Below are positions 4,494 to 47,934 of a stretch of DNA of 64,000 bases, piece by piece; position 1 is the stretch's first letter; each line of letters starts with the position of its first letter. The notes beneath the pieces were generated by a model. The model saw only the letters and a list, made by a program, of their open reading frames with translations. It was not told the DNA's origin and did no database searches. The DNA lies in IMG/VR virus record IMGVR_UViG_3300018080_000100; one strand, given 5' to 3'. The stretch is from a virus. Position numbers and translations under genes: made by a program.

Positions 4494-5228
4494 CTAGAAC
4501 GTCCGGAGCGGAATGCCACCCATCAGGGCAGCGTGTGTTGAGAATGACGACCAATAAGTCCCTATCAACTCCTTGGTGCGTGCTAACGAGAATAGATCGA
4601 TTGCCGAGTCGGCCACAGATGTATGCCGGCCACGTCGTGCGCGCTGCGGGCGCATAGTCTGTTCGCGCCAGATAATACGATCGCCGTAGAGCCGCCGCAG
4701 CCACTTCACGCTGTCGAAGTTGTCCGAACAGAGCAGGAACTGCGCGTCGGCGTCTTCAGCGACTACGCGATCAAGCTCCTTCTTCAACAGCGGGTCGGAC
4801 TGACGACAGTTTGGTAGGTCGGTACGCCGGACATGCAGGCCAATGGCGTCGGCCGGCACGGTCTCCATGAACGCCTCCAGCGTGTCCTCGAACTCTGGCT
4901 GCAGCCGTAGCGCACGCGCCCGTGCTGTGGCAATAGTCATGAATTCGTCGTGGGGGATCTCCAGTTGCGTCCTGTTGTACCATTCGACGATGTGCGTCGA
5001 GCGTTCTCCTACGAACTCGCGGATGCGCTTGTACTTACGCCCATCACGCCGAGACGGCATGATCGCGCAGGTGTCTGGCACGAATACGTCAGCGAACGTG
5101 GAGCTACACGCCGCATGTCGGTTCCAGTGCACCAGAAACGACAAGCCGTAGTAGTCGGCAATCGCCCCAATGCCGGTCCAACCACGCAGCCTGTTGCACA
5201 GGCCGCTCTGCGTGCAGTGCTGCATGAT
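4494..5228 (-). CDS. GT11/GT23-type fucosyltransferase-like glycosyltransferase
   Basis: N-terminal SGLCNRLRGW resembles the GGLGNQMFQY motif. IGLHVRRTDL matches the HxRRxD fucosyltransferase motif I. The longer ORF version (to 5480) overlaps the neighbouring gene. Confidence 0.5.
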   Translation of the reverse strand: MMQHCTQSGLCNRLRGWTGIGAIADYYGLSFLVHWNRHAACSSTFADVFVPDTCAIMPSRRDGRKYKRIREFVGERSTHIVEWYNRTQLEIPHDEFMTIATARARALRLQPEFEDTLEAFMETVPADAIGLHVRRTDLPNCRQSDPLLKKELDRVVAEDADAQFLLCSDNFDSVKWLRRLYGDRIIWREQTMRPQRARRGRHTSVADSAIDLFSLARTKELIGTYWSSFSTHAALMGGIPLRTF

Positions 5229-5266
5229 AACCGGGAACGTGTGGCGCGTACGTCCAGGCGCCGGAA

Positions 5267-5798
5267 TTATGCCGGTCCTTCGCGGGATAGCTTTTCTGCA
5301 AAGCGCCTCAGCCTGCTTTTTCCAGTTCTGTTTACCCACGGAAATGTCCGATCTGGGACGGGCAGATTTAGAAACGCGCATAGCGGCTCCCATCCGTCGC
5401 CGCCGCATACGTCGTACACCAGCAGGTCGTCCTGCCGTTCCGCAAAGTGCTTGTAGACAGCTGCTGTGTGCTCGTCCCATTTTCGTCTATGCAGCGCAGG
5501 ACTGCCTCCAAATTGCGACATGCGGCTGATGATCCACGGGTCCATGTCTCGGACAGTCAGGATGAACTTGCTGCCCGGGTACGCCGCGTCCAGCTCGCGG
5601 AACATGTAGTTGATCGGCGAGTCACAGAAAGCATTGTACTCCTCGTCGAGAGAGTGCAAAGGCGGCTTTCCGTGTCGCTTGTTCTGCCTGGCAACCGTCT
5701 TGACCTTGCGAGCCCAGTGCAGGCAATTGAAGCCGAGGATGTTCAAGGCCTTCTGCAGCGATGCAGTGCCGGTCTTGTTCATCCCTATACCAAGTATG
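5267..5798 (-). CDS. sulfotransferase (P-loop PAPS-binding type), tandem paralog A
   Basis: GIGMNKTGTAS 5'-PSB-like P-loop. Paralogous to 5812-6357. Probable GTG start with an aagggga SD. Confidence 0.6.
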
Positions 5799-5811
5799 AG
5801 TGATTTGGCCA

Positions 5812-6357
5812 CTAGGCTAATCCCCTTCTTTTTAGCGCTCGGCGACGGCGACGGCGTAGGTACGGCGTCGTCTTGTTCTTCCACGGGAACGGCTGATCGG
5901 GCACAGGCACGCCTAAGAACTCGCACAGCGGCACCCAGCCCACGCCGTCGCATAGATGGTACACAAGGATGTCGTCTTCACGGCCCTTGAAGTAGCGTGC
6001 CACCGCCTCGCAGTGGTCGTCCCAGCAGCGAGAGTGGTACTGTCGCGTATCACCGAATTGGATCATACGGCTCTTGATCCAGGCTTCCTTGCTCCGCATC
6101 GTGAAGATGAAACGGCTACCCGGATATGTGATGTCCAATACCTCAAAATGCAGGGGTATGGGGCAGTCGCAGAACGCGCGGTACTCGTCGGTGAGCGAAT
6201 GCAGTATCGGCCGCTTGCGCAGCTGATTCTCCTCGATGACCTTGCTGACACGTACTGAGTCGTGTAGGCAAGGAAACCCAAGCACGTCCAGGGCGCGCGT
6301 CAGTGACACCGTCCCGGTCTTGTTCATCCCTATGCCAAATATGAATGGCTCATCCAT
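5812..6357 (-). CDS. sulfotransferase, tandem paralog B
   Basis: MDEPFIFGIGMNKTGTVS P-loop at the N-terminus. Aligns with the upstream paralog along its length. Confidence 0.65.
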   Translation of the reverse strand: MDEPFIFGIGMNKTGTVSLTRALDVLGFPCLHDSVRVSKVIEENQLRKRPILHSLTDEYRAFCDCPIPLHFEVLDITYPGSRFIFTMRSKEAWIKSRMIQFGDTRQYHSRCWDDHCEAVARYFKGREDDILVYHLCDGVGWVPLCEFLGVPVPDQPFPWKNKTTPYLRRRRRRALKRRGLA

Positions 6358-7093
6358 GATGCTTCCTCGCTGCTTCTTCTAGCGCCGCAGACTCAGCTGG
6401 TGATACACGCCAGCGTTCTGTCTTACGACCTTTCCAGTTACGTCCCAAATGTCCCAAATGCAGCACTGCATAATCAACCCACGGCAGCAGCAGGCGTTTC
6501 TCGTCAGCCCACTCGAGCCCCAGGGCCACATCATACTTGGCCGCAGTGCGGTTTTCACTTATGCCGATTGGACGTGTCGGGTAGTGCCAGAGTTGAAAGT
6601 AGCCTTCGATACCGATCGGGTTGGATGTTGGGCGCTTGCCCCACACCTTGTTCTTACGCACAGCAGGTAGCGGATCAAGCCCTAGAGAATACCAGGACTT
6701 CTTGCGTTTGCACCGCTTCCACTGCGCCTCGGTCTTACAGCTACGACGACGCGCGCTGTAGAGGCACGTCTTGTCCAACTCGTTGAGTCCGACCCTGTCC
6801 GGTGGCGGCGGCATCATCAGGATGTCGGAATCCATAAACAGCAGCCAGCCGTCCGGCTTAGCATAAGCCAGTGCCTCGTTGAGAGCTGCCCCCTTGTTAA
6901 ACGGCGCGTTGTATTTGTTCCAAGCGCATGTCTTGAAGCACTCAGCGCCGCACCGCTTTGCCACCGCTTCCGTCGATCCGTCCGTCAGGCTCGTAGCCAC
7001 TACCACGCGCCCGTAACGTACCGCCTCCGGCAGCGTCAACGCTAGGAAGTCGCTGTAGTCGACGCTCGTCATTATGATGGTGAGCTGTGGCAT
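6350..7093 (-). CDS. GT-A fold glycosyltransferase (GT2-like)
   Basis: DxD-like FMDSDIL motif and N-terminal Rossmann-like beta strand. 8-bp overlap with neighbouring genes. Confidence 0.5.
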   Translation of the reverse strand: MPQLTIIMTSVDYSDFLALTLPEAVRYGRVVVATSLTDGSTEAVAKRCGAECFKTCAWNKYNAPFNKGAALNEALAYAKPDGWLLFMDSDILMMPPPPDRVGLNELDKTCLYSARRRSCKTEAQWKRCKRKKSWYSLGLDPLPAVRKNKVWGKRPTSNPIGIEGYFQLWHYPTRPIGISENRTAAKYDVALGLEWADEKRLLLPWVDYAVLHLGHLGRNWKGRKTERWRVSPAESAALEEAARKHHG

Positions 7094-7096
7094 ACG

Positions 7097-7750
7097 TCAT
7101 TTGGCTTTACGGATCATCTTCTTGTGCCAGCCGCTCATGAAGGACCGACGCCGGTACTTCCCGCGCAGCTCGGAAAAGCCGTCTTGCTGACCTACGATCA
7201 TCTTCTTGGCCACCAGGCACAGCGACTTGGGCTGCACCTTGTAAGCGTACCAGCGATCGATCGGCTGGGTCGCCACGCAGTACGCCGGGAACAGCGAACG
7301 GTGTACAGCATAGGCGTGCCCGCACAGGTAGCCGCCGCGTAGCTGACACAGGTGTTTGCTGAAATCGCGCGCACCCGTGGGTATGTTCACGCGGCGCTGT
7401 GACGGATAGCCGCCCATGTAGAACAGCCGCCAATCCGTCTGCGACAGCTCATGGATAACGCCGGCCATCTCGGAGGTATCGAGCACCTTGATATCGTCCT
7501 CGAAGATAAGGACGTTGTCCAGATCTTCTTCCATCGCCCAGTTAGCGCAGGCGACGTGGGACCGGTAACACCCGCGTTCGGGGTCTTCCGGGTCTTCGAT
7601 TGCAGAGAAGCGCTCCACGCGGTGCGCTATACCCATCTTCTCGAACTCGGCCTGGGCCTGCTCCCAGCGATCGGTGTGGCTGTCCAGGTTGATACAGAGA
7701 ATACGATCGAAGTATCCGCACGGGTTCAGCCCGTCGAATTCCTTAGTCAT
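7097..7750 (-). CDS. glycosyltransferase family 25 (LPS/LOS beta-1,4-galactosyltransferase-like)
   Basis: ILCINLDSHTDRW signature near the N-terminus and an IFEDD acidic motif. Confidence 0.6.
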   Translation of the reverse strand: MTKEFDGLNPCGYFDRILCINLDSHTDRWEQAQAEFEKMGIAHRVERFSAIEDPEDPERGCYRSHVACANWAMEEDLDNVLIFEDDIKVLDTSEMAGVIHELSQTDWRLFYMGGYPSQRRVNIPTGARDFSKHLCQLRGGYLCGHAYAVHRSLFPAYCVATQPIDRWYAYKVQPKSLCLVAKKMIVGQQDGFSELRGKYRRRSFMSGWHKKMIRKAK

Positions 7751-16649: not shown

Positions 16650-19271
16650 CTATTGAAGCATCTGTAGCATTTGTTGACGGCGCGGCTCGCCTGGCCCGAC
16701 AAACGGTATGGTAAAGCCCTTCTCCGCCTTGATGCCTTCGATGGCCTTCTGGCGCATCTCTGGCGGGAGCTGCGCGATGAGCTGCGCCATCTGCTGGTCT
16801 GGGATCTTCTTGTAAGCCCACGCCTTGATCAGGTCTTTGACGTCAGCTTGGGAGTCCAAGATGCCTTTCTTGCCGCCCTTATCGCCGTACTTGTTCACCC
16901 AGCCGAACTGTTGTCGTAGATCGGCCATGGCCTGTTCGGGCGTCTGCGGCTCAGGCGGTCCCTGGCGGACGCCAGCCGGTACGTTGGCCTCGTTACGCAT
17001 TCCAGGAGGCCCTTGTAACGCCGGATCGGCCGCTGGTATCTCATTAGGCGGCTCTTCGGGCGGAAGCTCCGGAACTGGCGCTGCGGCTGCTGGCGGCGGC
17101 ACAGGGCCAGCAGGCTCTACGCCAGGAATCTCAGGCGGCCCTTCGGGCATTGTTGGCCCAGCCGGGGGCTGTTCAGCGCCCTCAGGCGCTGCCTGGTCGC
17201 CTCCACCGCCGAACTGGTTCATCACCCAGTCGCCACCTCCGAAGGCCCATCCGAGCCCACCGAGACCGAGCGCGCCGCCGAGCATGGTCATCATGCCGTC
17301 GCCGCCCATCAGGCCGTTGATGAGCCCCATGACAGCGCCACCGACGCCGACGATGAGACCGAGCTTCTCGTGCCAATCCGAGTTCTTCCACCAATCGATG
17401 GCCTGCTCGATGTAGCCCGGATCCTGCTTTAGCTGCTCAGGATCAGCGCCCATCTGGGCCGCGTCCTGCTCGGCTTTGTACTCGAACGCCTTGCTGAGGT
17501 CGTCGGCATCGTATTCACCGTCAGCCCACTGGCGGGCGATCTTGCCCATGGCCTGCTCAACAGGGATGCCCTGCTCATAGGCCAGCTTGTGCGCCTTCTC
17601 GATACTGCGGTTCGCAATGACCTGCTGCACGGCACGTGGCACCTGCTCCTGTGGCACCTGCCCGGAGTTGATGGCGGCCGTCAGCTGCTCGATCTGTTGC
17701 GGCTGCATCGGATTGCTCATGGCGCGCTGGAAGGCGTCGTCGCCTACAGGGCCCTCGTAGATCATCTGGGCGACCGCTGGGTCCAACGGCTGCTGTGGTG
17801 CTGCAGGAGGCTGTCCAGGGGCCTCAGCGGCCGGAGGCGGCTGTTGTGGTGCTGCGGCCGGAGGCGGCTGTTGTGGTGCTGCGCCCGGTTCTGGTTGCGC
17901 TGGTGGCGCTCCAGTAGCCGCTCCTGGAGCCTGAACGGTCCCAGAGGCCGATGGTGTTGCAGGAGCGCCCTGAGCGCCCTGAGGGCCGCCCATCTCTGGG
18001 ATCGGTCCTGTGGGCGGCAGCTCTGTAGCAGCGCTTGGCTGCGTAGCGGCAGGCGGGTTGGCCTGTGCTGCTGCCGCGCCAGCCTGTTGGCCAGCGGCAA
18101 ACGATTCGGTCGGTGCGCTGGGCGCTGCTGGCGTTAGCGGCGCTGGTTTCGGTCTGTTGCCCTGCATGAGGCTTTCCATGTGCTTCACGAGTATGGATTG
18201 CTGTGTTGGATATGCTTCGACCGCTGGTGGCCCTTGTTCGCCGAAAGACTGTTCCCACTTCTCGTACTCGGCTTGCGCTGCGTCGAAGAAGCCTTTCTTC
18301 TCTTCATCGGTGAGTCTTGCGAGCACCTGTTGCTCGGGACTGCCCTCTGGCCACATGCCAGCGCCGACCGAACCCATCTCGCCGAAGATCAGGCCCAGGA
18401 AGCCCTTGCCTTTGCCGACGACATACGGCAACGCCGTCGACGCCGTATCGAACATGATACGCCCGGTGTCGGTGAATTTGTCGCCGGGGCCCTGCTTAGC
18501 GGCTGAGCTTTCAGTGTCGTGCCACCAGTCGTCGAATCCGCGGCTGGTCCGTGGACTGAACAACTGGTGCATACCGCGCTCATACGCGTTCTGGTACGGC
18601 ACACGCGCCGAGCGCATTGCTTCCACGCCGTGATCAGTGATGCCTAGAGCATCAGTGCCGTAGGCACCGAGCTGTCCGATACCACCAATCACGTCGCCCC
18701 AGAAGCCGCCTGCGCCGCCCAGTGCGCCTTTCGTTGCAGCTACAACTGGCGCGATGAAGCCTGGGTTACGAATTTGACGCCCGCCGGGGGCGTTGAAACC
18801 CTGCTCAGCACTGATCTGGTCCTGTGTGGCCCAGCCTGGCCCTTCATCGATTCCAGGCGTATTTTGCCACTGCCATTCGTTCTTCCGGCTCGGTGTGCCT
18901 ACCTTGTGTCCCGGATCCAATCCCGGCTTGGTAGCCGGATCGATACCACGAGAGATGAGGTCGGCACGCATGCGGGCCTGCTCTGCTTCGATCGACGGAC
19001 GCGGCCCCGGTGCAGGGCCAGGACCGTCCCAGGCTAGCTCCGGCGGCTTGAATGCGGGCTGTTTCGCCCCACGTGCGTACATGGCCGCGCCCATACGGCC
19101 ACCGATCGGGCCGGCGAGCGGGAGAGCCTGCTTCTCGAGCGCCGCACCCTCAGTGAATAAAGATGCAGGGCTGCCTGCTGACCGCTGGCGTGGTTGGTCA
19201 GCAGACAGGCCCTGCGGAGCGGATTCGATGGTCAAGGCAAAGGCTGCCTTGATTAGCTGTTCTGTGTTCAT
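16650..19271 (-). CDS. large low-complexity P/A/Q-rich protein with Gly-rich membrane-like segment (putative internal virion/ejection protein)
   Basis: 873 aa. Long PAPQQPPPAA tracts and GGALGLGGLGWAFGGG glycine-zipper; no enzymatic motifs seen. Confidence 0.5.
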   Translation of the reverse strand: MNTEQLIKAAFALTIESAPQGLSADQPRQRSAGSPASLFTEGAALEKQALPLAGPIGGRMGAAMYARGAKQPAFKPPELAWDGPGPAPGPRPSIEAEQARMRADLISRGIDPATKPGLDPGHKVGTPSRKNEWQWQNTPGIDEGPGWATQDQISAEQGFNAPGGRQIRNPGFIAPVVAATKGALGGAGGFWGDVIGGIGQLGAYGTDALGITDHGVEAMRSARVPYQNAYERGMHQLFSPRTSRGFDDWWHDTESSAAKQGPGDKFTDTGRIMFDTASTALPYVVGKGKGFLGLIFGEMGSVGAGMWPEGSPEQQVLARLTDEEKKGFFDAAQAEYEKWEQSFGEQGPPAVEAYPTQQSILVKHMESLMQGNRPKPAPLTPAAPSAPTESFAAGQQAGAAAAQANPPAATQPSAATELPPTGPIPEMGGPQGAQGAPATPSASGTVQAPGAATGAPPAQPEPGAAPQQPPPAAAPQQPPPAAEAPGQPPAAPQQPLDPAVAQMIYEGPVGDDAFQRAMSNPMQPQQIEQLTAAINSGQVPQEQVPRAVQQVIANRSIEKAHKLAYEQGIPVEQAMGKIARQWADGEYDADDLSKAFEYKAEQDAAQMGADPEQLKQDPGYIEQAIDWWKNSDWHEKLGLIVGVGGAVMGLINGLMGGDGMMTMLGGALGLGGLGWAFGGGDWVMNQFGGGGDQAAPEGAEQPPAGPTMPEGPPEIPGVEPAGPVPPPAAAAPVPELPPEEPPNEIPAADPALQGPPGMRNEANVPAGVRQGPPEPQTPEQAMADLRQQFGWVNKYGDKGGKKGILDSQADVKDLIKAWAYKKIPDQQMAQLIAQLPPEMRQKAIEGIKAEKGFTIPFVGPGEPRRQQMLQMLQ

Positions 19272-19279
19272 GGCTATCC

Positions 19280-20182
19280 CTAAAGCTGAATGCCGGGCCA
19301 GCGTGCAATCTTGTCTCGGCTCGGGCTGACCTTCTTGTCGCTGAGCCCGTCAGTCGCTTCGGTGGTCGGACATGCCGGCTTGAACCCGCCAGCGGCCGGA
19401 CCGTATGTGCTGTTCTGCAACACCTGCGTCACGCTGGGCACGAGCATGGCCAGCTTGTCGTAGGCATCCTTTTCCTGCGCAGCCTCCTGCTTCTTCTTTT
19501 CCTTCTCTGCCCGCTGGTTCTCGTACTGCTGTTCGTAGTTGTTGCCGGGCAGCCACTTGTCGAGCAACATCGAGGTCGGTAGGCCGGCAGCCAATCCGCC
19601 GATGCCCATACCAGCTAGACTGCCCAGCGGATGTCCAGTCATTCCACCGGCTGCGCTACCAACACCCATACCAGCAAGCAGGGGAACCACTGAGCCCCAG
19701 GTGTGCAGACTGTTACGCTCTGTGTCTGGCATTTCACCGCTTTCCCAGCTAGGCGCCTTCTGCCGCCCGCCAAGCGCATAACCGGCAACGCCGCCTGCGC
19801 CCATACCGCCGAGCGCGCCGAGGCCAGCACCAGCGCCGATGTCTTCACCCATGAGATGTGCGATAAGCGCACCTAGGCCAGCGCCACCGGCGCCGCCACC
19901 GAGCATACCAAGACCGGTCTTAGCGCCACGCCGTGCACCTCTCGCATAGCCCTCAGTGCGGTTGCCGGACGGCGCAAACATCGCACCAAGTCCGCCGCCG
20001 ATGAGGCCGGTGTCCGAAATGCTCTGCTTCTCCAGTGCGAGCTTCTCCAGCCGCTCAGCACACGCCTCGGCCATCTTACGACGACCCCTGCGCTTCTTGA
20101 GCGCTTTGGCGACGATCTTGTCCTGCTCGTCGTCCTCTTCGATCGGCTTACGGACGGCCATTATGTCTTGTGGGTCAGGCAT
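19280..20182 (-). CDS. glycine-zipper membrane protein
   Basis: Repeated GxxxG/GAGLGALGGMGAGG segments; basic N-terminus. Confidence 0.5.
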   Translation of the reverse strand: MPDPQDIMAVRKPIEEDDEQDKIVAKALKKRRGRRKMAEACAERLEKLALEKQSISDTGLIGGGLGAMFAPSGNRTEGYARGARRGAKTGLGMLGGGAGGAGLGALIAHLMGEDIGAGAGLGALGGMGAGGVAGYALGGRQKAPSWESGEMPDTERNSLHTWGSVVPLLAGMGVGSAAGGMTGHPLGSLAGMGIGGLAAGLPTSMLLDKWLPGNNYEQQYENQRAEKEKKKQEAAQEKDAYDKLAMLVPSVTQVLQNSTYGPAAGGFKPACPTTEATDGLSDKKVSPSRDKIARWPGIQL

Positions 20183-20195
20183 CGTTCTCTCCTTG

Positions 20196-21647
20196 TTATG
20201 CGTATGACGACAAGCGGCCGGCCTGGTCGAGCTGGTCTCGTAGGCCGCTGTGCAGGATATCCGCGCTCTGGTCGCTCATGGCGGTGTTGAACGCGTTGGG
20301 GTCATGCCCGGTCTCGAACTGGTCGCGCCGGGCCAGGTAGTTCTGCTGCGGCAAGCTGACGTCAGCACCGCCACGCAAGCCAGCACGCGCCTTGGAAGCG
20401 ATCATGTCGCCCCGGCGCTCTAGGCCGCTGTAGTAATCCATCATCTTCTGGGCGTTGGCCTTCTGGCCCTCGCCGATCACGCTGCCACGGCTGGACAGTC
20501 CACCAACGTCGCCCTGTCGGAGCGAATCGTAGTATTCCATCTGTTCGCGGAATCGGCTGTCGGCCCACGGTGACTTCTGTTCCGGTACCGCACCACCGCC
20601 ACCGGTGGCCTCGAAGCGCGCTGTGGCGTCAGGGAGATCCATGCTATCGGGCGGAGGGCTTTCCATCGTGCCCGACGCCATCGCATCACCAGGCGTACCA
20701 GGCTCAGCAGGCGCGTTCATGCCATCCATCCTGGCAATCTCAGCCTCGAAGCCTGGGCCACGAGGATTGGGCGGCTCGTTCATGCCATCCATCCTGGCGA
20801 TCTCTGCCTCGAAGCCTGGGCCACGAGGGTTCGGTCCAGGCCCGCTCTCTGGCATGCGCGCGTTCATGTCGGCCACGGCCGCCTCAAAACCAGGGCCACG
20901 AGGGTTGCCAGGCTCAGGCGGCGCATTCATGCCGTCCATACGTGCAATCTCTGCTTCGAAGCCTGGACCACGTGGATTGGGCACAGGACCACTCTCAGGC
21001 ATCCTGGCGTTCATGTCGGCCACAGCAGCATCGAAACCAGGGCCACGAGGGCTGTCCGGCTGTTGCCAGTTGATCTCCGGAAGCGGAGGCCCAGGGTACT
21101 TGTCCTTGGCGAGGTCAGGCGCACCAGGCTTAGGCGCATTGCCTGTAGGCTCACCGACAGTATCCCAGTTGACGTCCGGGAGCGGACCGCCAGGCGGCTG
21201 GTCGTAGGCTGCATCAACAGGCCCGCCCATGGCCGGGCTGATCGGCTGCTGCGGTGCTTGCGGAGTTGCAGGCTGCTGTGCTGCTACAGGCTTAGGCGCA
21301 GGACGCCGGCCGCTCGAATAGAACGAGTAATCGGCTGTTCTGTTGGGGTTGGCCGGGCCGCTGAGTGTTGCGCCCGGTGCGCCACCAGCGCCGACACCGC
21401 TGGCAGCAAGCGCCTTGGGTATGTCCTGAAAGCCCTTGTTGGCCATCATGGGCAGCTTAGCGGGCGGACGGGTAGGCGGCTTCAGCCCACCGACGCCACC
21501 TGCCATTGGCTTGGGGCCTACTGGATTGAGCGCCTTGAGACCGGCGCCTCCGACGCCACCAGCGCCACCAAGAGTCTTAGGTGGCTCAATAGGGGCAGCT
21601 TCCTTGAACAGGCCCACGCCGGCCTGCAGAAGTTCTTGAGAGTTCAT
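20196..21647 (-). CDS. tandem-repeat protein (PRGPGFEAxxAxMxxxMPESGP units)
   Basis: Five to six ~24-aa repeats (NPRGPGFEAEIARMDGMNAPPEPG), visible as DNA tandem repeats around 20650-21060. Confidence 0.55.
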   Translation of the reverse strand: MNSQELLQAGVGLFKEAAPIEPPKTLGGAGGVGGAGLKALNPVGPKPMAGGVGGLKPPTRPPAKLPMMANKGFQDIPKALAASGVGAGGAPGATLSGPANPNRTADYSFYSSGRRPAPKPVAAQQPATPQAPQQPISPAMGGPVDAAYDQPPGGPLPDVNWDTVGEPTGNAPKPGAPDLAKDKYPGPPLPEINWQQPDSPRGPGFDAAVADMNARMPESGPVPNPRGPGFEAEIARMDGMNAPPEPGNPRGPGFEAAVADMNARMPESGPGPNPRGPGFEAEIARMDGMNEPPNPRGPGFEAEIARMDGMNAPAEPGTPGDAMASGTMESPPPDSMDLPDATARFEATGGGGAVPEQKSPWADSRFREQMEYYDSLRQGDVGGLSSRGSVIGEGQKANAQKMMDYYSGLERRGDMIASKARAGLRGGADVSLPQQNYLARRDQFETGHDPNAFNTAMSDQSADILHSGLRDQLDQAGRLSSYA

Positions 21648-21692: not shown

Positions 21693-22331
21693 TTACCCCT
21701 CTGGGACATAGAGACCTTCGAACAACTTCCAGTCGATCTGGTCGGTGATCTGGCGGATGTGTTCGGGCTTCAGTAGCTCCAAATACTGCTTTTCCGTGTA
21801 GTATTGGCGCTTGAACTTGTACTGAGGCATCCCTCCAGGGGTACTGCCTGGCCGTACAATCGTCTCCGGCAGCGCGTCCCAGCGCTTCTTCGGCGGGCCC
21901 AGCAGCTCGGTCATCGGCGCGTAGAGCGCGTCCAGCGACTCCAGCACGTCCTCGTACCGAACGATGGCCTTGTCGTACTTCGTCTTGAACCAGGCCCGGT
22001 AGAAGTTGTTGTACTGCCCGATGCGGTAGCCCAACTTCGCTGGCCCGTACGAAAACGGAATCTTGGTGTCGGGGATCTTGGTGCCCTGATGGCCTGCCTG
22101 CACTGCCCATGCATGCCAACTGACGATCCACGCATAGGGATCCTTCAAATTGATCAGCAGAACAGTATTGAGCGGCCAATCTCTCGAGTCCTGTACTGTG
22201 CGGTGCTTGGTAGTACGCCCGCGCTTACCGCGGCGACCGACCAGGTGATTGTATCCCCAACCATCTTCCACCATCTTGCCACACATGGTCGTGCCAGAGC
22301 GTGGCAATCCTCGCTGTTGTACCTTACGCAT
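21693..22331 (-). CDS. sulfotransferase-like P-loop protein
   Basis: GLPRSGTTM P-loop near the N-terminus and later aromatic/basic motifs. Embedded in the virion-like module. Confidence 0.45.
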   Translation of the reverse strand: MRKVQQRGLPRSGTTMCGKMVEDGWGYNHLVGRRGKRGRTTKHRTVQDSRDWPLNTVLLINLKDPYAWIVSWHAWAVQAGHQGTKIPDTKIPFSYGPAKLGYRIGQYNNFYRAWFKTKYDKAIVRYEDVLESLDALYAPMTELLGPPKKRWDALPETIVRPGSTPGGMPQYKFKRQYYTEKQYLELLKPEHIRQITDQIDWKLFEGLYVPEG

Positions 22332-23036: not shown

Positions 23037-24200
23037 TTATAGCCACGGCACAGGATCGCCGATGTCTGGGAACTCCGACAGGTCTACGGGCGACAAAGAA
23101 TAGCCGACCGGCAACGTTGCAGCGATCAGATCGTATTGACCATTGACTGCGCACGAGCCGCTCACCTTCTCTCCATAGTTGGCAACAGCCCAGTGCTGCG
23201 ATACCCACACCAACTCGTTGTTGACGATGATGAACTGCGGATCCCCCGAATCGCCGGTATAGATCTGTTTGTCTGGCGGATAGAAAGCCGCACGCTGCGC
23301 ATCGCCCGAAACGAACTCTGGATCTCGTGTACGGAAGCTTTGCCACTTGGAGGTGCCGTAGCACCCGGTTATGTCCATCACCAATGCGTCTTCGCGGTTG
23401 TTGCGACTGTTCTGGCAGAACGTCGGTATGCCGTAGGCTTTAACATCAGGGTCTTCGAAGCTGATGTAGCTCTTGCCAGTGAACTTCACGGCGTCTTCAG
23501 GCCGCAGGAACTTGCACGGCGTGATCGTGCCCGGTAAGTCTAAGTTCAGCTCGCACACTGTTATGTCAAGCGTATGTCCGCCATCCTCCGGCGGCCTGAA
23601 GAGCGATGTCTTCGACTGAATTGTGCGCTTCTCTACGGCGTTGGCCATCGTTATGAAGTGCAACTCAGCGCCGACTGGTGGATCCCAATGCGTTGCGGCT
23701 ATCACGTGCTTGGGCGTGATCAACGTACATGCCTGTTGGCGGTTATTCGTGTTGTACGGCGAGATGCACGTCATATCGATGTCCGCTGCCCAGCAGTTGA
23801 CATTGCGCACGTACGTGTCGGTCTCCTCGACACGGGTCGTGTACATTGGGAGCGCCACATCGGGATCAAGCCCACGGATCCGATCGTCGACCATGGCCGA
23901 GGCGTGCTCAAACAACGTGATAGGCGCCTGCGACGAGGACGATGACGACTCCACGACAACAGGCTCAGGGCTGACCGTACGAGGTGTCTCCTCGCCAAGG
24001 TGCCAGGGGTCGTTCTCTGTGGAGGCTCTGTCTGGCGCAGGGTAGCCGTCAGGGATGCCAGAGGCGCGCGGCTGTGGCCGCCACACAGGGTAGACGTGGA
24101 TCAGGCTGTCCTGGGGCACAACGGTAGCGTTAGGGCGCCGATACGTGGTTCGGATACCCTCCCGCTCTAGGAATCGTCGTGCGTCGCCTGTGATTGCCAT
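23037..24200 (-). CDS. chymotrypsin-fold (S1) serine protease-like protein, paralog 1
   Basis: ITPKHVIAATHW (His region) and GDSGDP (GDSGxP catalytic Ser motif). 50% similar to the neighbouring gene. Confidence 0.5.
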   Translation of the reverse strand: MAITGDARRFLEREGIRTTYRRPNATVVPQDSLIHVYPVWRPQPRASGIPDGYPAPDRASTENDPWHLGEETPRTVSPEPVVVESSSSSSQAPITLFEHASAMVDDRIRGLDPDVALPMYTTRVEETDTYVRNVNCWAADIDMTCISPYNTNNRQQACTLITPKHVIAATHWDPPVGAELHFITMANAVEKRTIQSKTSLFRPPEDGGHTLDITVCELNLDLPGTITPCKFLRPEDAVKFTGKSYISFEDPDVKAYGIPTFCQNSRNNREDALVMDITGCYGTSKWQSFRTRDPEFVSGDAQRAAFYPPDKQIYTGDSGDPQFIIVNNELVWVSQHWAVANYGEKVSGSCAVNGQYDLIAATLPVGYSLSPVDLSEFPDIGDPVPWL

Positions 24201-25367
24201 TTATGCCTCCGATGCGCGCCATGCGCACATTGGGCCGACGTCTGGAAACCCGGATATGTCAATCGACCCCAATTCGTAGCCTACCGGTAACAGCGCATTG
24301 ATGTCTGCTGCCATTCCGCTTAGAAACGGTCGGCCGGTGCCGCCGTCCCGCTGGGTGAGGATGCTCGTATGCATGTTTATGAGCGCCAACTCGCCGTTGA
24401 CGATAGCACACGTCACGTCGCCCGAGTCGCCGGAGTTGATCTTGTTCGGATAGAACGCGTCGCGCGTTGGATCGTAGGAACGGTAATACCACGCTGTACG
24501 GTACTTGACCTCCGGATACAGCCCGCCAATATCCATCACTTGGCCATCTTCGCGAGCGCTGCGGCTGTTCCCTACGAACACTGGCATACCAACGGCTTTG
24601 TTCTCCTCGGTGATGGGCGCAAACAGATAGCCAGGTCCAGCAAACTTCACATCGGCCTCCGCCGGCAATAGCTTGGCCGGCGTGATCGTCCCTGGGAGAT
24701 CAGAGCTCAACTCGCCGATACGCATATCAGCCGTCTGTGGCCCAGTGCTCGGGTCGATGTACGTCACGTCGGTCCAAGACATGAGCGTACGCTTCTCGAC
24801 CACGTTGCCCATAGTGACAAAGTGGAGCACGCTCCCGATAGGAGGATACCAGCCAAGGTGCGTCACCGATATCACATGCTTGGGCGTGATTAGCGTAGCG
24901 CTCTTCATGTGGTTATCGTCGTTCCACGGAACGAGGCAGGTCATATCGACATCTGCGGCCCAGAAGCTGGTATTCCGTACGTACGTCTCGGTCGCACCAT
25001 CTCGGACGGTGAACATGGGCACGGCGACATTCGGATCCAGTCCTCGGATACGGTCGTCGATCTGCGCTGTGGCATGCTCTAACAACGTAGTGGTCTGCAC
25101 CGACGACGAAGATGAACTCTCCTCAGGCACCACGGGCACGACAGTGCGCGGCGTGACTGGGCCAAGATGCCAGGGGTCGTTCTGCGTGGAAGCTCTGTCG
25201 GGGTTAGGCGCGCCGTTGAGGATGCCAGAGGCACGTGGGAACGGCCGATCCACAGGATAGTCGTGGATGGCGCTGTCACCAGGCACAACGGTCCCGATCG
25301 GTCGCCTGTACGTTGACCGCATCTTCGCGCGCTCCAAGAAGCGCCTAGCGTCCATGGTGACAGTCAT
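24201..25367 (-). CDS. chymotrypsin-fold (S1) serine protease-like protein, paralog 2
   Basis: ITPKHVISVTH and NSGDSGD motifs; collinear with 23037-24200. Confidence 0.5.
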   Translation of the reverse strand: MTVTMDARRFLERAKMRSTYRRPIGTVVPGDSAIHDYPVDRPFPRASGILNGAPNPDRASTQNDPWHLGPVTPRTVVPVVPEESSSSSSVQTTTLLEHATAQIDDRIRGLDPNVAVPMFTVRDGATETYVRNTSFWAADVDMTCLVPWNDDNHMKSATLITPKHVISVTHLGWYPPIGSVLHFVTMGNVVEKRTLMSWTDVTYIDPSTGPQTADMRIGELSSDLPGTITPAKLLPAEADVKFAGPGYLFAPITEENKAVGMPVFVGNSRSAREDGQVMDIGGLYPEVKYRTAWYYRSYDPTRDAFYPNKINSGDSGDVTCAIVNGELALINMHTSILTQRDGGTGRPFLSGMAADINALLPVGYELGSIDISGFPDVGPMCAWRASEA

Positions 25368-25375
25368 TGGCGCCC

Positions 25376-25699
25376 CTAGATCTTAGCGACGATACCCCAG
25401 TCAGCGTCACATGCAGCACCGCTGCCCTTGATCGTGACTTTGGTGATCCCTGACCGCTTACGGCGGAAGACCAGCGTAGCACCAGGGCGCATGGTAATGA
25501 AGTCGGCAGCGTCGTGCAGACCTTCGATGTTCACCATGCCCGGGTTAGCCGAGCTGGACAGGATGTGCACCATGAACGACGTGCAGCCCTGCTTATCTGA
25601 GTAGACGACCGTGCCGCCCGTACCGTAGTTTCCAGTTCCTGCTGTGGCCATTCGTTGGCTCCTTACAGTGAAAGTCCTAGTCCGCTCGCTTCGCCCCAC
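25376..25699 (-). CDS. hypothetical protein
   Basis: 107-aa ORF in the array. Confidence 0.4.
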   Translation of the reverse strand: MGRSERTRTFTVRSQRMATAGTGNYGTGGTVVYSDKQGCTSFMVHILSSSANPGMVNIEGLHDAADFITMRPGATLVFRRKRSGITKVTIKGSGAACDADWGIVAKI

Positions 25700-27345
25700 T
25701 CCGGGAGATCCTCTGCGCTGCCGTCAGCGGGCACGAGCGTTTCGTAGCATCCCATGCAGTACCCTGCGCCTCTGGGCCGTGACCGCTCCAGGATGTCGTG
25801 CCGTATGTACTCATTGAAGTATCCGACCGGGGTGCTGTAGATGTTGTTGCCTACGTCCTGGCCCACAGACCCGTCGAACAGCGTGAAGTCGCCGCCCGGT
25901 GCATCAGTGAAGATGTTGGCCGGCGTTGCCTCTGAGAGGTTCCCCGAGCCACCCAGCACGCTTTGCGCTGTCCCGTCTCCGTCGTCCATGTTGTAACCGG
26001 CCGTGATCGATGCTGGCGGGCTGCCACTGAAGCTGTAGCAATTGCTACCTATCGCTGAGCTGATATTGTTCTGGGCGTAGAGTACGGGGATGTCGCTGAA
26101 GATCTGCCAGTCGAGGAAGGCCCCAGTGACGTCGTATGCCGTGTTGTTGTAGAACCAGAGACTGACATACGCACCCGACACGCAGTGGAACACATCAATT
26201 CCGATGTCGTAAAACAGGCAGTTGGCGAACGAGATGAAATGTGGCGAAGAGCCCGCGAACAAGTTCAGCCCGTTAGACAAGCCATGGAACGTGCAGCGAT
26301 CGAACGCCCAGAACGTGTACGAGTTGCCAGGTGATACACCGTTCGACATGTCCTTGAACTCGATGCCGGTGACGCGGAGGAACTCTCCATTGCCTTGGCC
26401 GTTGACACCGCCGTTATTCACTTGCGTGGCAATGTACGGTGACTCGCCATCTGCCGGCTCAATAAAGGCATTCTGCGACGCCCAAGGCGCCCCGAACTCC
26501 ACACCACCAAGGTCGCCACCGCCGTAGCAAATGGCGTACTCGTCGTCTCCACTACCACCGCGCGCAGCTGACCAGGCAGCCAACGTCGTGTAGTCGCCCA
26601 CGGTGACGAGGTTCGTAGGCACGTCGTCAGCCAAGGCCATGCCGCTCTGCGAGACGGTCAGCGTGCCAGGAAGCTCATCGTCGTACCCTACACCGGTGAA
26701 GTACCAGGCCAACGAGAGCGTTGCCACCTCGTCCGGAGGCACCGGACTGCCTGCATAGGCGCCGGTGCCGGACAGCTGTGCCCGCTCATCTGCGGTGAAC
26801 ACACGGCCCGTGATCTTACACCAGTGGGACATCTTGTTGCCACTGTTGATGTAGTTTGTGTCGCCCTCCTCCCTCCGTCCGAAGTTCACGTAGTCAGTGC
26901 AGTAGACAGAGACCGGCGCCTGCATGTACGTCATGTACGACTGCTCCACGCCATCAACGTAGATCCTCGCACGGTAATCGCCGGACAAGTACTCCACAGT
27001 AATGTGCCGCCATCCAGGATTACCGTTGAACGGGGCGGTACTGGTTAGAGTCGTACCGCCACCGAACTCTCCAGTGTCTATATCGACTTTTACATTCCCT
27101 GCCTGGATGAACACGCTGTCTTCCGGTATCGTGATGGCGAACAGCATCCCGGAACCGCCATCGTTCCACTCCAGCAGCGTTTGGAAACCACTGCCGGCGT
27201 TGCTGTCCATGAACACCCATCCCGCTATCGCCCAACCATCCTGCGGCAGGTCGAACACCGAGTTCTGGTTCACGCGGACGTACGACGATCCACTGAACTC
27301 CCAGCTCCGGGCTGCAGGCGTGATTGTCTTGGTTGTGGTTCCCAT
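25663..27345 (-). CDS. tailspike/depolymerase-like protein: LamG/ConA-like N-domain + right-handed parallel beta-helix
   Basis: N-terminus GWAIAGWVFMDSNAGSGFQTLLEWNDGG (LamG-like). C-terminal repeated NxxG/I-rich beta-helix coils (NGLNLFAGSS...FYNNTAYD...). Confidence 0.45.
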   Translation of the reverse strand: MGTTTKTITPAARSWEFSGSSYVRVNQNSVFDLPQDGWAIAGWVFMDSNAGSGFQTLLEWNDGGSGMLFAITIPEDSVFIQAGNVKVDIDTGEFGGGTTLTSTAPFNGNPGWRHITVEYLSGDYRARIYVDGVEQSYMTYMQAPVSVYCTDYVNFGRREEGDTNYINSGNKMSHWCKITGRVFTADERAQLSGTGAYAGSPVPPDEVATLSLAWYFTGVGYDDELPGTLTVSQSGMALADDVPTNLVTVGDYTTLAAWSAARGGSGDDEYAICYGGGDLGGVEFGAPWASQNAFIEPADGESPYIATQVNNGGVNGQGNGEFLRVTGIEFKDMSNGVSPGNSYTFWAFDRCTFHGLSNGLNLFAGSSPHFISFANCLFYDIGIDVFHCVSGAYVSLWFYNNTAYDVTGAFLDWQIFSDIPVLYAQNNISSAIGSNCYSFSGSPPASITAGYNMDDGDGTAQSVLGGSGNLSEATPANIFTDAPGGDFTLFDGSVGQDVGNNIYSTPVGYFNEYIRHDILERSRPRGAGYCMGCYETLVPADGSAEDLPEWGEASGLGLSL

Positions 27346-29019: not shown

Positions 29020-30249
29020 TTAGTTGGTCAGACGCTCCAGCCAATTTTGATCAGCTGAACAAGATTCGGCTGCTTTCCTGTGCCCTGCCAGCACATTGGT
29101 ACTCAGTTTGCCCTGTGGGTACTTTTTCTGGAGCCAGTCGAGCATACCCAGCTCGCCGCCCTGTGTGAGGAACATCAGCTTCTTGTCGCCGGCTGTACGC
29201 TGGTGGAAGTCTACGCCCAGGTCGCCTCGATCCTTCACGGTGAGGTCGCCACAGTTGTAGTCGGCCAGCTCGGCATACTTGTCCATGGCCACCTTACCAG
29301 CCATGCCGTTGAAACCGCCCACTCCCACTCCTTTACCCAAAGCCCCAGTGGCGATCGGGAAGCCCAGGCCGCTGGCGCTGCCTACACCCATATGGGCCAT
29401 TGAAAAGTCCCCTGGAGCCCCTTGCCAGCTCTGCGGTTGCTGCTGTTGTACAGGCATCGGGGCCTCGTGTTTCTCCATACCGGCGAGGTTCTGCCCGGCC
29501 GCGGCCATCACTCTTGGATCGTCGGACGGAGCAACCGTAGGTGCTTGCTGTGCTGGCACTTGGGCCACGCCAGGGGGCATAGCGATGGATGGCCGCGCTG
29601 ATTTTTCAAGGCTTCGCGTCCCCAGCTCGGAGGGTGCCGACGGGGGCGCATCCGCAGTAATCCCCTCTTTTGGGAACACAGAGGTAGCCACAACGGCTGC
29701 ATCCACGGCCTTTTTGATGCCACTGATAGCAGCGACCATGCGCGCGGTTTGGACATCATCAGGTAAGAAATCACAGAGTGCTATCGGTGCTGCCACTCCC
29801 GACGCAGCCTTGTCGCAGCCCCCAGACTCCATCACTTCGAGCTTGTCGTAGTATTTTCTGTCCTCTTGTAGGTGATCTTTGGCGATCTCCTCGGCCAGCT
29901 CCTCGTCGTTGACATGCTCCATCTCCACTTCTTCGCCCTTGTCAAGCTGGTCCTCTGGGTATGCGGAGTCGGGTTTGCCGTCAGCCAAACCACCAGTCAG
30001 CCGATCGGGACCAGAGGCCATTTTGCCCACGATAGCGTGCATCCAGGGGGCGTACGCCTCCTTCTTGCGCCCCTTTTTCTTAGCGCGCTCAGGTAGGTCT
30101 TTGCCCTTGGACTCCTCGTTCCATTCGTCCACGTCAACGCCCTCAGCCTCAAGCTCGGCCTTGTTGGCATTGAAGTAACGCCGCTGAGCGTCGCTAGCGT
30201 ATGGCATCGTGCCGCTCCTAGAAGGTTCCAATCCGTTGTTCCACGCCAC
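29020..30249 (-). CDS. hypothetical protein
   Basis: 409-aa ORF; acidic N-terminal region and Q/P-rich middle. Confidence 0.45.
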   Translation of the reverse strand: MAWNNGLEPSRSGTMPYASDAQRRYFNANKAELEAEGVDVDEWNEESKGKDLPERAKKKGRKKEAYAPWMHAIVGKMASGPDRLTGGLADGKPDSAYPEDQLDKGEEVEMEHVNDEELAEEIAKDHLQEDRKYYDKLEVMESGGCDKAASGVAAPIALCDFLPDDVQTARMVAAISGIKKAVDAAVVATSVFPKEGITADAPPSAPSELGTRSLEKSARPSIAMPPGVAQVPAQQAPTVAPSDDPRVMAAAGQNLAGMEKHEAPMPVQQQQPQSWQGAPGDFSMAHMGVGSASGLGFPIATGALGKGVGVGGFNGMAGKVAMDKYAELADYNCGDLTVKDRGDLGVDFHQRTAGDKKLMFLTQGGELGMLDWLQKKYPQGKLSTNVLAGHRKAAESCSADQNWLERLTN

Positions 30250-30297
30250 TCACTAGTATGGCGCATCTACACAGGGCTGGCAATGCGTGTCTGATAG

Positions 30298-30327
30298 CTA
30301 AAGAAAAGGCCCCAAAGTGGGGCCTAG
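30298..30327 (-). terminator. rho-independent terminator
   Basis: aggcccc-aaagt-ggggcct hairpin, followed on the minus transcript by UUUUCUUUAG. Confidence 0.6.
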
Positions 30328-30366: not shown

Positions 30367-31041
30367 TCAGCTGAGCGATAGGCCCATGCGCGCCAGTGCC
30401 TCGACAACGTATCGACAGCGTGTCTTGCCCATACCGGCTACCTTGCGCAGGCCCGCTTCCGAGTATGACAGAAGCGCGTCGATCGTAAGGATGCTTGCCT
30501 GGTGGAGCACATCTAACGTACGTGGATCCAAACCGTCCAGCGTAAAAACTGGCAGACGCGCCGGATCCTGCTTGTCCGCGGCCATTGGGTTGTTTAGATA
30601 TGTGTGAGCGTGAAAATGTCCAGGATCAACGCACACCTCATGCGCATCTGCTGGATAATTAGCCCGCGTCAACAGCTCCAGCAGCCAGTTATGCATATGG
30701 GCTGCCCATACGTTGGTGAATGCTGTAGGACTATCCACGTAGCTGTTCACGGACACGTATACCTGCAACCGTGGCGGCGGTGGCTTGTCGGCAACACTCA
30801 TCCGTGTGAACATGTTGACTTTCGGCGCCCAGCACGCACGCGCATCTACGAGCTCGTGTAGAACCAGCTGCAAAGCCTGTTCGTCGACCGCGCTGAGCGC
30901 AGCTATCATCCGTGACTCGATGTGTGTCAGCGCGCCCAACAGCATCGTACCGACGAACGAGTCGGTAGCCAGCTTCATCTTGCCCGTAGCTTCGGGCATA
31001 TCGCCGTCCAGCAGGTCTATAGTCGTCTCGTACTTTTCCAT
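30367..31041 (-). CDS. protein with RNA-polymerase alpha-CTD-like helix-hairpin-helix domain
   Basis: C-terminus LDGLDPRTLDVLHQASILTIDALL..LRKVAGMGKTRCRYVVEALARMGLSL parallels the alpha-CTD [30 protein letters not shown]. Confidence 0.45.
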   Translation of the reverse strand: MEKYETTIDLLDGDMPEATGKMKLATDSFVGTMLLGALTHIESRMIAALSAVDEQALQLVLHELVDARACWAPKVNMFTRMSVADKPPPPRLQVYVSVNSYVDSPTAFTNVWAAHMHNWLLELLTRANYPADAHEVCVDPGHFHAHTYLNNPMAADKQDPARLPVFTLDGLDPRTLDVLHQASILTIDALLSYSEAGLRKVAGMGKTRCRYVVEALARMGLSLS

Positions 31042-46884: not shown

Positions 46885-47934
46885 CTAGCGTTGGAGTTCC
46901 GTCCATCCTGCCGCAAATTGCTTTCTGCGGTTCAACAGTCCGATGGACGCTTGCTTCTTCATCTTGACGATAAGTGCTCGGTCCTGCAAGGTGGACACGA
47001 GCGTATCCGCGAATTCCCTATAACCGGATATCACCTCCGGCACGCCAAGCCAGTTCTCCTTGGTCTTGGCTGGTACGAGCACGGAGTTCTTCCAGGATTT
47101 CAGGAATTCGTTTTGTGGGCGCATGTCCCACGAGAGCACGGGCGCACCCATGCACAACGAGTTCAGGCCGATAAGCCCGAAGCTCTCAAATCTGGACGCC
47201 CAAACGGTCAGGTCAGCCCGTGCGAACAGCATAAGCCTGTGCAAGATATTCGGATGGAGGACAAGCACGACTCTGTCACCGAACTGCTTACGTAGGTCTT
47301 TCACTATACGCTTGGAAGACAATGACCATTTGCGTCCACAGGCAATCATCACGTTCGCGTGCGGTACCTCCGCCAATGTCCTGTGCATCATGTCGAATAT
47401 CGCCTGATCGCTTCTTTGCGGTTGCGTATCATAGAGCGGGAAGTAGACACACAGGTTGTTGTGCGGTTCGTCGGTGTTCCTGCGAGAGATTGGGACAGGC
47501 ACGTCCCAGGGCATCATGATCGGTGTAGTGCTGTCTAGCTGCCAATGCCGCTGGAGCGCATGACCGACACAACGATACGGGATGATGATCTTATCGAATG
47601 CGAGCACCGTGGCTGCGTCATTGGGTGTGAGTCGCTCCCACTCGATAAGCAGCGCGGTTTCAACGTCCAGGTGCTTGATGCGCCGCAGTTCGCGCTTCCT
47701 GGGCACGTGTGTCCAGATGATACGGCTGCAACGCTGTGCCCACTTGAGCAAGCGCTGTTGCCGCGCGCTGACTACTGCAGAATCCCAGACGCGGGCTACT
47801 TCACGACGTACGACGCCCTTACCGTAGATGGTAGACGGCAGACCTTGATCCCTGGCCCTCTCGGCCAAATGGACCGCAGCATGCGCAACTTCGTGCTGCT
47901 GGTATCGGGTTATGATCCCGAGCCTGTCTGCCAT
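46885..47934 (-). CDS. GT-B fold glycosyltransferase (GT4-like)
   Basis: FESFGLIGLNSLCMGAPVL corresponds to the GT4 E-x7-E / EGFG..EAMA.G.PV motif region. Confidence 0.55.
   Translation of the reverse strand: MADRLGIITRYQQHEVAHAAVHLAERARDQGLPSTIYGKGVVRREVARVWDSAVVSARQQRLLKWAQRCSRIIWTHVPRKRELRRIKHLDVETALLIEWERLTPNDAATVLAFDKIIIPYRCVGHALQRHWQLDSTTPIMMPWDVPVPISRRNTDEPHNNLCVYFPLYDTQPQRSDQAIFDMMHRTLAEVPHANVMIACGRKWSLSSKRIVKDLRKQFGDRVVLVLHPNILHRLMLFARADLTVWASRFESFGLIGLNSLCMGAPVLSWDMRPQNEFLKSWKNSVLVPAKTKENWLGVPEVISGYREFADTLVSTLQDRALIVKMKKQASIGLLNRRKQFAAGWTELQR

Follow-up and report, generated by a model that had tools for sequence, protein, structure and literature searches.

What do the two neighbouring genes at positions 23,037 to 25,367 of IMG/VR virus record IMGVR_UViG_3300018080_000100 encode, and what might the virus use them for? 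The window, i.e. the whole stretch of 64,000 nucleotides (nt) that was analysed, holds exactly there two open reading frames (ORFs) on the minus strand, here called genes A and B, whose products align from end to end with 52% identity (207/396, E 6e-124).

24201..25367, minus strand: gene A, 388 amino acids (aa), the upstream copy; N-terminal module, poly-Ser linker and C-terminal S1-like serine hydrolase domain
23037..24200, minus strand: gene B, 387 aa, same architecture as gene A; the protein used for structure modelling

The original prediction, made from the DNA letters, had described a tandem pair of chymotrypsin-fold serine protease-like paralogs with a shared MxxTxDARRFLER N-terminus, a His-region motif (ITPKHVI.ATH) and a GDSGD(P) motif, and both the pair and all of the named motifs are indeed present. 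The motifs read MTVTMDARRFLER, ITPKHVISVTH and GDSGDV in gene A and MAITGDARRFLER, ITPKHVIAATH and GDSGDP in gene B. Chance can be discounted as their source: in a family of ~2,200 cluster representatives, the columns concerned vary little or not at all, and in alignments with trypsins of solved structure they coincide with the catalytic His and Ser motifs. Both genes share the coding GC pattern of their neighbours (GC at third codon positions, GC3, of 0.71), and the antisense ORFs opposite them behave like shadow frames. The gene A protein was found in identical form on eight contigs, the longest on record being 226,656 bp.

Direct searches with the two proteins gave no Pfam match even at E≤10, no PHROG match and no PDB sequence match. 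A five-sequence profile did not match PDB either, and AlphaFold2 (AF2) on a five-sequence alignment returned no usable model, with a predicted local distance difference test (pLDDT) score of 32. A usable model depended on the distant relatives that turned up when 1.84 billion cluster representatives (50% identity clusters) were searched exhaustively with a profile. On an alignment of 71 sequences, gene B was modelled with a mean pLDDT of 76.5 and a predicted template modelling (pTM) score of 0.75; residues 90–387 mostly exceed a pLDDT of 85 and residues 1–69 stay below 50. The N-terminal module, where pLDDT is low, is covered by at most 3 of the 71 alignment rows, all from the window lineage. 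The predicted structure consists of the two six-stranded beta-barrels of the chymotrypsin fold. Foldseek of the model against PDB retrieved 815 chains at E≤1e-3, and the top matches were all S1 proteases (activated protein C, neutrophil elastase, chymotrypsin and factor IXa), as the proposed fold had led one to expect. The domains and their catalytic candidates are located as follows.

24204..25094, minus strand: S1-like domain of gene A, aa 92-388; catalytic candidates H170 (24858-24860), D214 (24726-24728) and S315 (24423-24425)
23040..23927, minus strand: S1-like domain of gene B, aa 92-387; catalytic candidates H171 (23688-23690), D212 (23565-23567) and S318 (23247-23249)

Alignments lead to the same assignment. 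A family profile restricted to the domain matches the trypsin of Saccharopolyspora erythraea at E 2.4e-4 in the PDB profile search, with 'gtlisprhvllaaHy' on 'GTLAAPNKVVTAAHC' and 'isGDSGsp' on 'CQGDSGGP'. When bovine chymotrypsinogen A was aligned with hmmalign to the hidden Markov model (HMM) of the family, which itself matches gene A at E 1e-90, His57, Asp102 and Ser195 fell in the columns of H171, D212 and S318. At the sequence level, the Ser of GDSG thus lines up with a His/Asp triad as anticipated. A comparison of the family with the single chymotrypsinogen sequence by hhalign aligned only the Ser region, at a probability of 20%. In both A and B the order His-Asp-Ser is found at the canonical S1 positions of the alignment, and GDSGDV and GDSGDP represent the GDSGGP-type oxyanion motif, in which G316 and D317 of gene B are the equivalents of Gly193 and Asp194.

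Conservation was counted in the 71-sequence alignment or in 260 family domains. The triad is complete in 258 of the 260 domains; D317 and G319 occur in all of them and G316 in 248. W137, H171, D212, L218, D317, S318 and G319 (gene B numbering) are the invariant columns of the 71-sequence alignment. The catalytic His does lie in the predicted His-region motif, which contains two His residues; the candidate is the last one (H170 in A, H171 in B) and not the one of 'KH'. This choice follows from its higher conservation (259/260, compared to 253/260 for the 'KH' His) and from the trypsin and chymotrypsin alignments. The 'KH' His, H165, present in 66 of the 71 aligned sequences, was considered as a catalytic His of the V8 type and rejected on these grounds and on the strand pattern: it aligns with Trp51 of chymotrypsin, and the match to the V8 catalytic His is limited to a short local alignment. 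In the V8 protease of Staphylococcus aureus, which with other glutamyl endopeptidases and the Spl proteases (S1B; PDB 1qy6, 6q12, 5mm8) is among the closest known systems, the catalytic His is that of 'NKH', unlike H171 here, and the sequence similarity of V8 to the A/B family is confined to this KH motif. Taken together, genes A and B almost certainly encode a chymotrypsin-fold (clan PA, S1-like) serine hydrolase domain with a complete triad.

The domain is nevertheless far from the known members of peptidase family S1. Compared to bovine chymotrypsin, the S. erythraea trypsin (PDB 5dj7/5dk1), human activated protein C and MASP-2, A and B are only 12–15% identical. They carry an additional, highly conserved N-terminal elaboration of ~50–60 aa (helix 96–108, YVRN..CWA motif) and larger insertions in the second barrel, lack the disulfide pattern and an Ile16-type activation N-terminus, and show the family motif GDSG(N/S/D)P instead of GDSGGP. 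Moreover, they are phage-encoded and fused behind Ig/LamG modules (Ig, immunoglobulin) or a unique N-terminal module. Pfam Trypsin (PF00089) is matched at E≤0.01 by 5 of the 71 relatives, P0006 being the best with 28.4 bits against a cutoff of 20.6. Since A and B themselves have no Pfam match, the family is by score a divergent sister family of PF00089 and not a member of it.

This family is large. At E≤1e-3 it comprises 2,200 proteins, of which 1,289 pass E≤1e-10, and all have the C-terminal ~285 residues in common. The S1-like domain ends within five residues of the C-terminus in 233 of 260 members, behind an N-terminal extension with a median length of 145 aa. Such extensions carry Big_2 (17/71) or Big-like (10/71) Ig domains, and the Ig regions of the relatives match PDB Ig-like domains of a phage short tail fibre, a Hoc-like protein, a tail tube protein and S-layer proteins. 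The larger members show fusions to LamG_3 (as in P0009), fn3 with DUF285, TSP3, FG-GAP with fn3, and an RCC1 propeller with Big_7. The N-termini of the members inspected do not resemble signal peptides. Four proteins (P0005, P0059, P0069 and P0126, one of them a giant of 4,782 aa) contain two complete S1-like domains in one chain, so duplication of the module recurs independently of the window pair.

All members with a source label are annotated as "hypothetical protein", and no description of the family was found in the literature; two phage structure papers mention chymotrypsin merely as a digestion reagent. Using tblastn, one of 50,697 deposited phage genomes was found to carry the family, the metagenome-derived MW202510. 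The 'trypsin-like serine protease' of phiM9-type T4-like phages was considered as a member and rejected, this genome being the only one retrieved from the phage collection. BFVD holds one close structural relative, which is uncharacterized, and pattern scans of IMG/VR, metagenome and genome collections gave no relative of gene B. Pfam accession PF26918.1 is precomputed on P0204, P0206, P0219, P0233, P0234, P0239, P0255 and P0261 and possibly represents a recent model of part of their sequence. All six GTDB matches of a typical subfamily (L011-L016) belong to metagenome-assembled genomes from the PVC superphylum, namely four of Verrucomicrobiota, one of Pirellulaceae and one of Kiritimatiellales; the contigs may be prophages or mis-binned phage sequences. 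The source labels Opitutaceae and Didemnitutus agree with this, whereas one label is Paceibacterota. The labels hint at hosts in the PVC superphylum, a host range that would explain why the family is absent from cultured phages.

The remaining parts of the two proteins are the N-terminal modules and the linkers.

25128..25367, minus strand: N-terminal module of gene A, aa 1-80, with DARRFLER at 25329-25352; proposed anchor or pro-region
25101..25118, minus strand: poly-Ser linker of gene A, aa 84-89, SSSSSS
23961..24200, minus strand: N-terminal module of gene B, aa 1-80, with DARRFLER at 24162-24185
23931..23948, minus strand: poly-Ser linker of gene B, aa 85-90

The close relatives found in a database of 5.8 billion sequences amount to four proteins, namely the window pair and a second tandem pair on L004, a contig of 8.6 kb. 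Of the two L004 genes, one clusters with gene A (69% identity), the other with gene B (71%). As each paralog pairs with its own L004 ortholog, the sequences place the A/B duplication before the split of the window phage and the L004 phage, making it an ancient one. Identity to the orthologs rises to 90% (A) and 94% (B) in the N-terminal module, hence the first ~85 residues are more conserved than the enzyme domain. The six-Ser linker is kept in all four proteins. Divergence between A and B peaks at residues ~201–220, 241–260, 281–300 and 321–360, mostly in the second barrel. The public gene calls of both L004 orthologs (4934-6097 and 6099-7277) are 5'-truncated (360 and 287 aa); upstream in-frame translation recovers both full N-terminal modules. 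A twin-arginine translocation (Tat) signal peptide was considered for ARRFLER and rejected: the x spacer is missing, and the motif is followed by charged and polar sequence (EREGIRTTYRRPNATVVPQDS) without a hydrophobic stretch.

What are two such enzymes doing in a phage? Our working answer, which we hold only tentatively, is that A and B are triad-intact S1-like proteases associated with virion-surface fibres and cleaving a host-surface protein, with two specificities. Each protein would be a component of the virion surface. Through its strongly conserved ~85-aa N-terminal module it would be attached to the tail-fibre or spike apparatus; the LamG protein, whose gene lies just upstream, may be the docking partner. 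The poly-Ser stretch would serve as a flexible linker, and the C-terminal protease would form the distal head that faces the host. On meeting the cell, the enzyme would cut a protein or peptide of the host envelope (S-layer, fimbrial or another surface protein), exposing a receptor or clearing a path, as a proteolytic counterpart of the polysaccharide depolymerase tailspikes. The two copies, which diverged most in the second barrel and its loops, might thereby provide two substrate specificities, both proteins being made together from one probably translationally coupled message.

We infer virion display and a host-surface protein substrate from the company that the domain keeps. In the relatives it is C-terminal behind Ig-like modules and adjoins Mtd_N, beta-helix and tape-measure-type genes. 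On L005 (a contig of 36 kb), the S1-like gene directly follows Mtd_N (tail-fibre) proteins of 191 and 872 aa and precedes a sulfotransferase. The same sulfotransferase neighbour is found on L006 (46 kb), where the co-directional run includes a giant protein with a PhageMin_Tail domain. On L007 (362 kb) the gene follows a 707-aa protein. In the complete podophage genome MW202510, it comes after an internal virion protein, a structural protein and a DUF1565 beta-helix-like protein, and before an fn3 protein. Judged by gene content, these neighbourhoods point toward the tail-fibre apparatus. Among 11 loci compared, no neighbour family other than the S1-like gene occurs in three or more, indicating that the gene recurs in otherwise dissimilar genomes.

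The layout also resembles that of enzymatic tailspikes and fibres and of Peptidase_S74 proteins, with an N-terminal anchor, a C-terminal enzymatic or host-facing part and a fibre-gene neighbourhood. As in enzymatic tailspikes and fibres, a conserved N-terminus is combined with a diverging C-terminus. The enzymes themselves differ: depolymerases are beta-helix glycanases or lyases acting on polysaccharide, unlike the chymotrypsin-fold triad of A and B, and Peptidase_S74 is a Ser-Lys auto-cleaving chaperone of another fold. Identity with Peptidase_S74 (PF13884) was rejected on the absence of a Pfam match and on structural matches to S1 proteases only; neither Pfam nor Foldseek gave an S74 or beta-helix match for A or B.

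Several observations weigh against this role. Among the window proteins scanned, no capsid, tail or terminase gene was recognised, so the 'structural region' in which the original prediction had placed the pair is conjectural. The fold and triad in that prediction held up in the model and the alignments, whereas its structural region and tailspike setting are tentative. The window proteins are without the Big_2 domain typical of the family. The N-terminal module was not found elsewhere in the window nor, in the protein database of 5.8 billion sequences, outside this lineage, leaving its conservation pattern as the sole ground for an anchor role. In the L004 ortholog of gene B, the oxyanion-hole Gly is replaced by Asn (NDSGD). 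The ratios of nonsynonymous to synonymous substitution rates (dN/dS), 0.21–0.32 for all pairs, are rough because dS (~1.0–1.3) is near saturation. Finally, peptidoglycan peptides, phage proteins or, rarely, esters could also be substrates of an enzyme with an S1 fold and an intact triad.

The first of these substrates would make the pair virion- or lysis-associated peptidoglycan peptidases, in which the S1-like domain cuts stem peptides or cross-bridges during entry. The bacteriolytic S1 enzymes of the alpha-lytic protease type from Lysobacter are a cell-wall-cutting precedent, the triad is intact and the extracellular or virion-type domain partners would equally fit a wall-directed enzyme. 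However, the family members scanned are all devoid of LysM, SH3 and PG_binding domains. The known peptidoglycan peptidases of phage tails are of the M23, CHAP and NlpC/P60 types and usually reside in tail-tip, tape-measure or internal proteins; as far as is generally known, they are not placed at the C-terminus of Ig-domain fibre-like proteins. We regard this explanation as unlikely.

An equally improbable explanation is an assembly or maturation protease that processes fibre precursors, neighbouring low-complexity proteins or its own pro-regions in the infected cell and has no functional part in the virion. The pair does lie in a long co-directional operon with large low-complexity proteins. 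In addition, the conserved N-terminal module and linker could be a pro-peptide, and secreted bacterial S1 proteases commonly need pro-regions. An intracellular enzyme, however, would have no use for adhesion modules (Big_2, LamG, fn3 or propeller) and no reason to be confined to the C-terminus. Also, the neighbours vary between loci whereas the S1 module stays, which argues against a dedicated phage-encoded substrate.

Poorer still are the prospects of a non-catalytic protease fold, whose part would be to bind a receptor, as a head, or to hold an extended peptide in its cleft, as a connector. The example is UmbA of the Streptomyces umbrella toxins, whose trypsin-like domain grips the N-terminus of UmbB as a connector without cleaving it; no UmbA has a complete triad and none has detectable activity (PMC11062931). 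The trypsin fold is shared with UmbA (PDB 8w20, 9oee), but the triad is complete in A, B and 258 of 260 relatives, and GDSG is almost universal. Such retention is not expected without selection for catalysis, and an identity as UmbA-like pseudoprotease connectors was rejected for A and B. The arrangement differs too, the lectin being distal and the trypsin domain proximal in UmbA, whereas the S1-like domain itself is C-terminal in the phage family.

It is just as doubtful that the proteins decorate the capsid or tail and digest an environmental protein matrix (biofilm, mucus or particle-bound) for phage mobility, with Ig display as in Hoc. In PDB, the Big_2 regions of the relatives do match Ig-like domains from Hoc-like, major capsid and tail tube proteins. 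Against this, the gene adjoins fibre-like and not capsid genes in L001, L005 and L006, and the window proteins have no Ig domain. A prohead (capsid maturation) protease, for which nothing speaks beyond being a phage-encoded serine protease, is effectively refuted by the chymotrypsin-like fold, given that the S77, S78, S80, U9 and U35 proteases of MEROPS have a herpesvirus/HK97-type fold and S49 a ClpP fold, that there is no PHROG or Pfam prohead protease match and no portal or capsid gene recognised among the neighbours, and that the relatives show adhesion-domain fusions, absent from prohead proteases, and a genomic position beside fibre genes.

Returning to the gene pair and its surroundings in the window, the following features concern its expression and its nearest neighbours.

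24198..24210, minus strand: A/B junction; GGAGG Shine-Dalgarno sequence (24206-24210), gene A stop TAA (24201-24203) and gene B ATG (24198-24200)
25376..25699, minus strand: small conserved ORF of 107 aa (91 aa if read from an internal ATG) that separates the LamG gene from gene A
25663..27345, minus strand: upstream protein of 560 aa, LamG_3-type by orthology; candidate fibre or spike partner
30325-30307, then 30283-30255, minus strand: terminator-like hairpin followed by a promoter-like site, from a consensus scan only

As read from the sequence, the TAA of gene A directly adjoins the ATG of gene B, with GGAGG 5 nt upstream, which suggests that the genes are translationally coupled. The pair is embedded in a long co-directional gene run. 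The hairpin at ~30.3 kb, strong and like an intrinsic terminator, has an 8 bp stem with six GC pairs and a T-run. The promoter-like site is the sole sigma-70-like match in 10 kb and lies just upstream of a DUF5661 gene (29020-30249). Positions 30255-30325 are the probable start of the co-directional run, i.e. the boundary of the operon containing the pair. Beyond it, a protein of 224 aa (30367-31041, minus strand) has a C-terminus weakly like the C-terminal domain of the RNA polymerase alpha subunit or a helix-hairpin-helix (E ~5e-4, below the Pfam cutoffs).

Both in the window and on L004, the S1-like pair comes after a LamG_3-type protein and the small conserved ORF. The latter holds the same position in L002, L003 and L004, shares 37 nt with the 3' end of the LamG gene and matches no family. 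The 560-aa protein is 73% identical to a 517-aa protein of L004 that matches Laminin_G_3 at 8.4e-10, the domain type fused to the S1-like domain in P0009, and its sole distant homolog sits in an operon with a weak Mu gp36-like match. It had been taken for a tailspike; this was set aside, as PDB, phage genomes and Pfam give no support beyond LamG_3 by orthology, and the claim that the pair adjoins a tailspike is accordingly tentative.

Two genes downstream of the pair, a 212-aa ORF (21693-22331, minus strand) contains GLPRSGTT, which is like the 3'-phosphoadenosine-5'-phosphosulfate (PAPS)-binding loop of sulfotransferases. An assignment as sulfotransferase was not adopted, the match being limited to the loop (pairwise E 0.008) with no Pfam match, and it remains a lead. 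Bona fide Sulfotransfer_1/3 genes directly follow the S1-like gene in two unrelated phage contigs (L005:11230-12030 and L006:3440-4240), a linkage that is suggestive.

At 16650-21647 (minus strand), three consecutive low-complexity proteins of 873, 300 and 483 aa are encoded, which are rich in Pro, Ala, Gln and Gly, have glycine-zipper-like hydrophobic stretches and gave no Pfam or PHROG match. The 483-aa protein contains ~5 'NPRGPGFEA..A.M' repeats and shares the N-terminus MN..ELL.A..L..E.AP with the 873-aa protein. Genes of sugar metabolism are unusually many for a phage (4494-5480, 8562-9818, 11081-11962, ~15.0-15.7 kb and 46885-47934); they include a GT1 glycosyltransferase, a second GT-like one, a heptose kinase/adenylyltransferase-like gene, an L-rhamnose mutarotase domain and a class II aldolase. 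On L005, too, the S1-like gene has several glycosyltransferases and a pyruvyl transferase nearby. The sugar genes could serve the modification of virion or host-surface glycans, and the poly-Ser linkers of A and B are speculative O-glycosylation sites.

For the pair itself, the deep family alignment assigns a fold and an active site to proteins that are invisible to Pfam, PHROGs and PDB sequence searches. It also brings to light a large (at least 2,200 clusters at 50% identity), unnamed, uncharacterized and phage-associated family. The targets of known virion-associated phage enzymes are mostly polysaccharides (for depolymerase tailspikes) or peptidoglycan (for M23, CHAP and lysozyme domains). 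It is possible, if on balance improbable, that the family represents widespread virion-borne 'protein depolymerases', i.e. active chymotrypsin-fold heads on the fibre proteins of uncultured phages of the PVC superphylum (Verrucomicrobiota, Planctomycetota and Kiritimatiellota), whose digestion of a proteinaceous layer on the host surface opens the infection, and that in this jumbo-size phage an ancient duplication supplies two specificities. As a further possibility, the strongly conserved N-terminal segments, unstructured in the model, may dock in the substrate cleft of a partner, like UmbB in UmbA, and act as a latch or pro-inhibitor released on host contact. If the family does consist of such depolymerases, this would add proteolysis of host-surface proteins to the known phage routes through the cell envelope and would offer enzymology a new, highly diverse set of secretion-independent proteases. 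To our knowledge, there are almost no cultured phage-host systems for PVC bacteria, and the family would then also give a functional handle on their phages.

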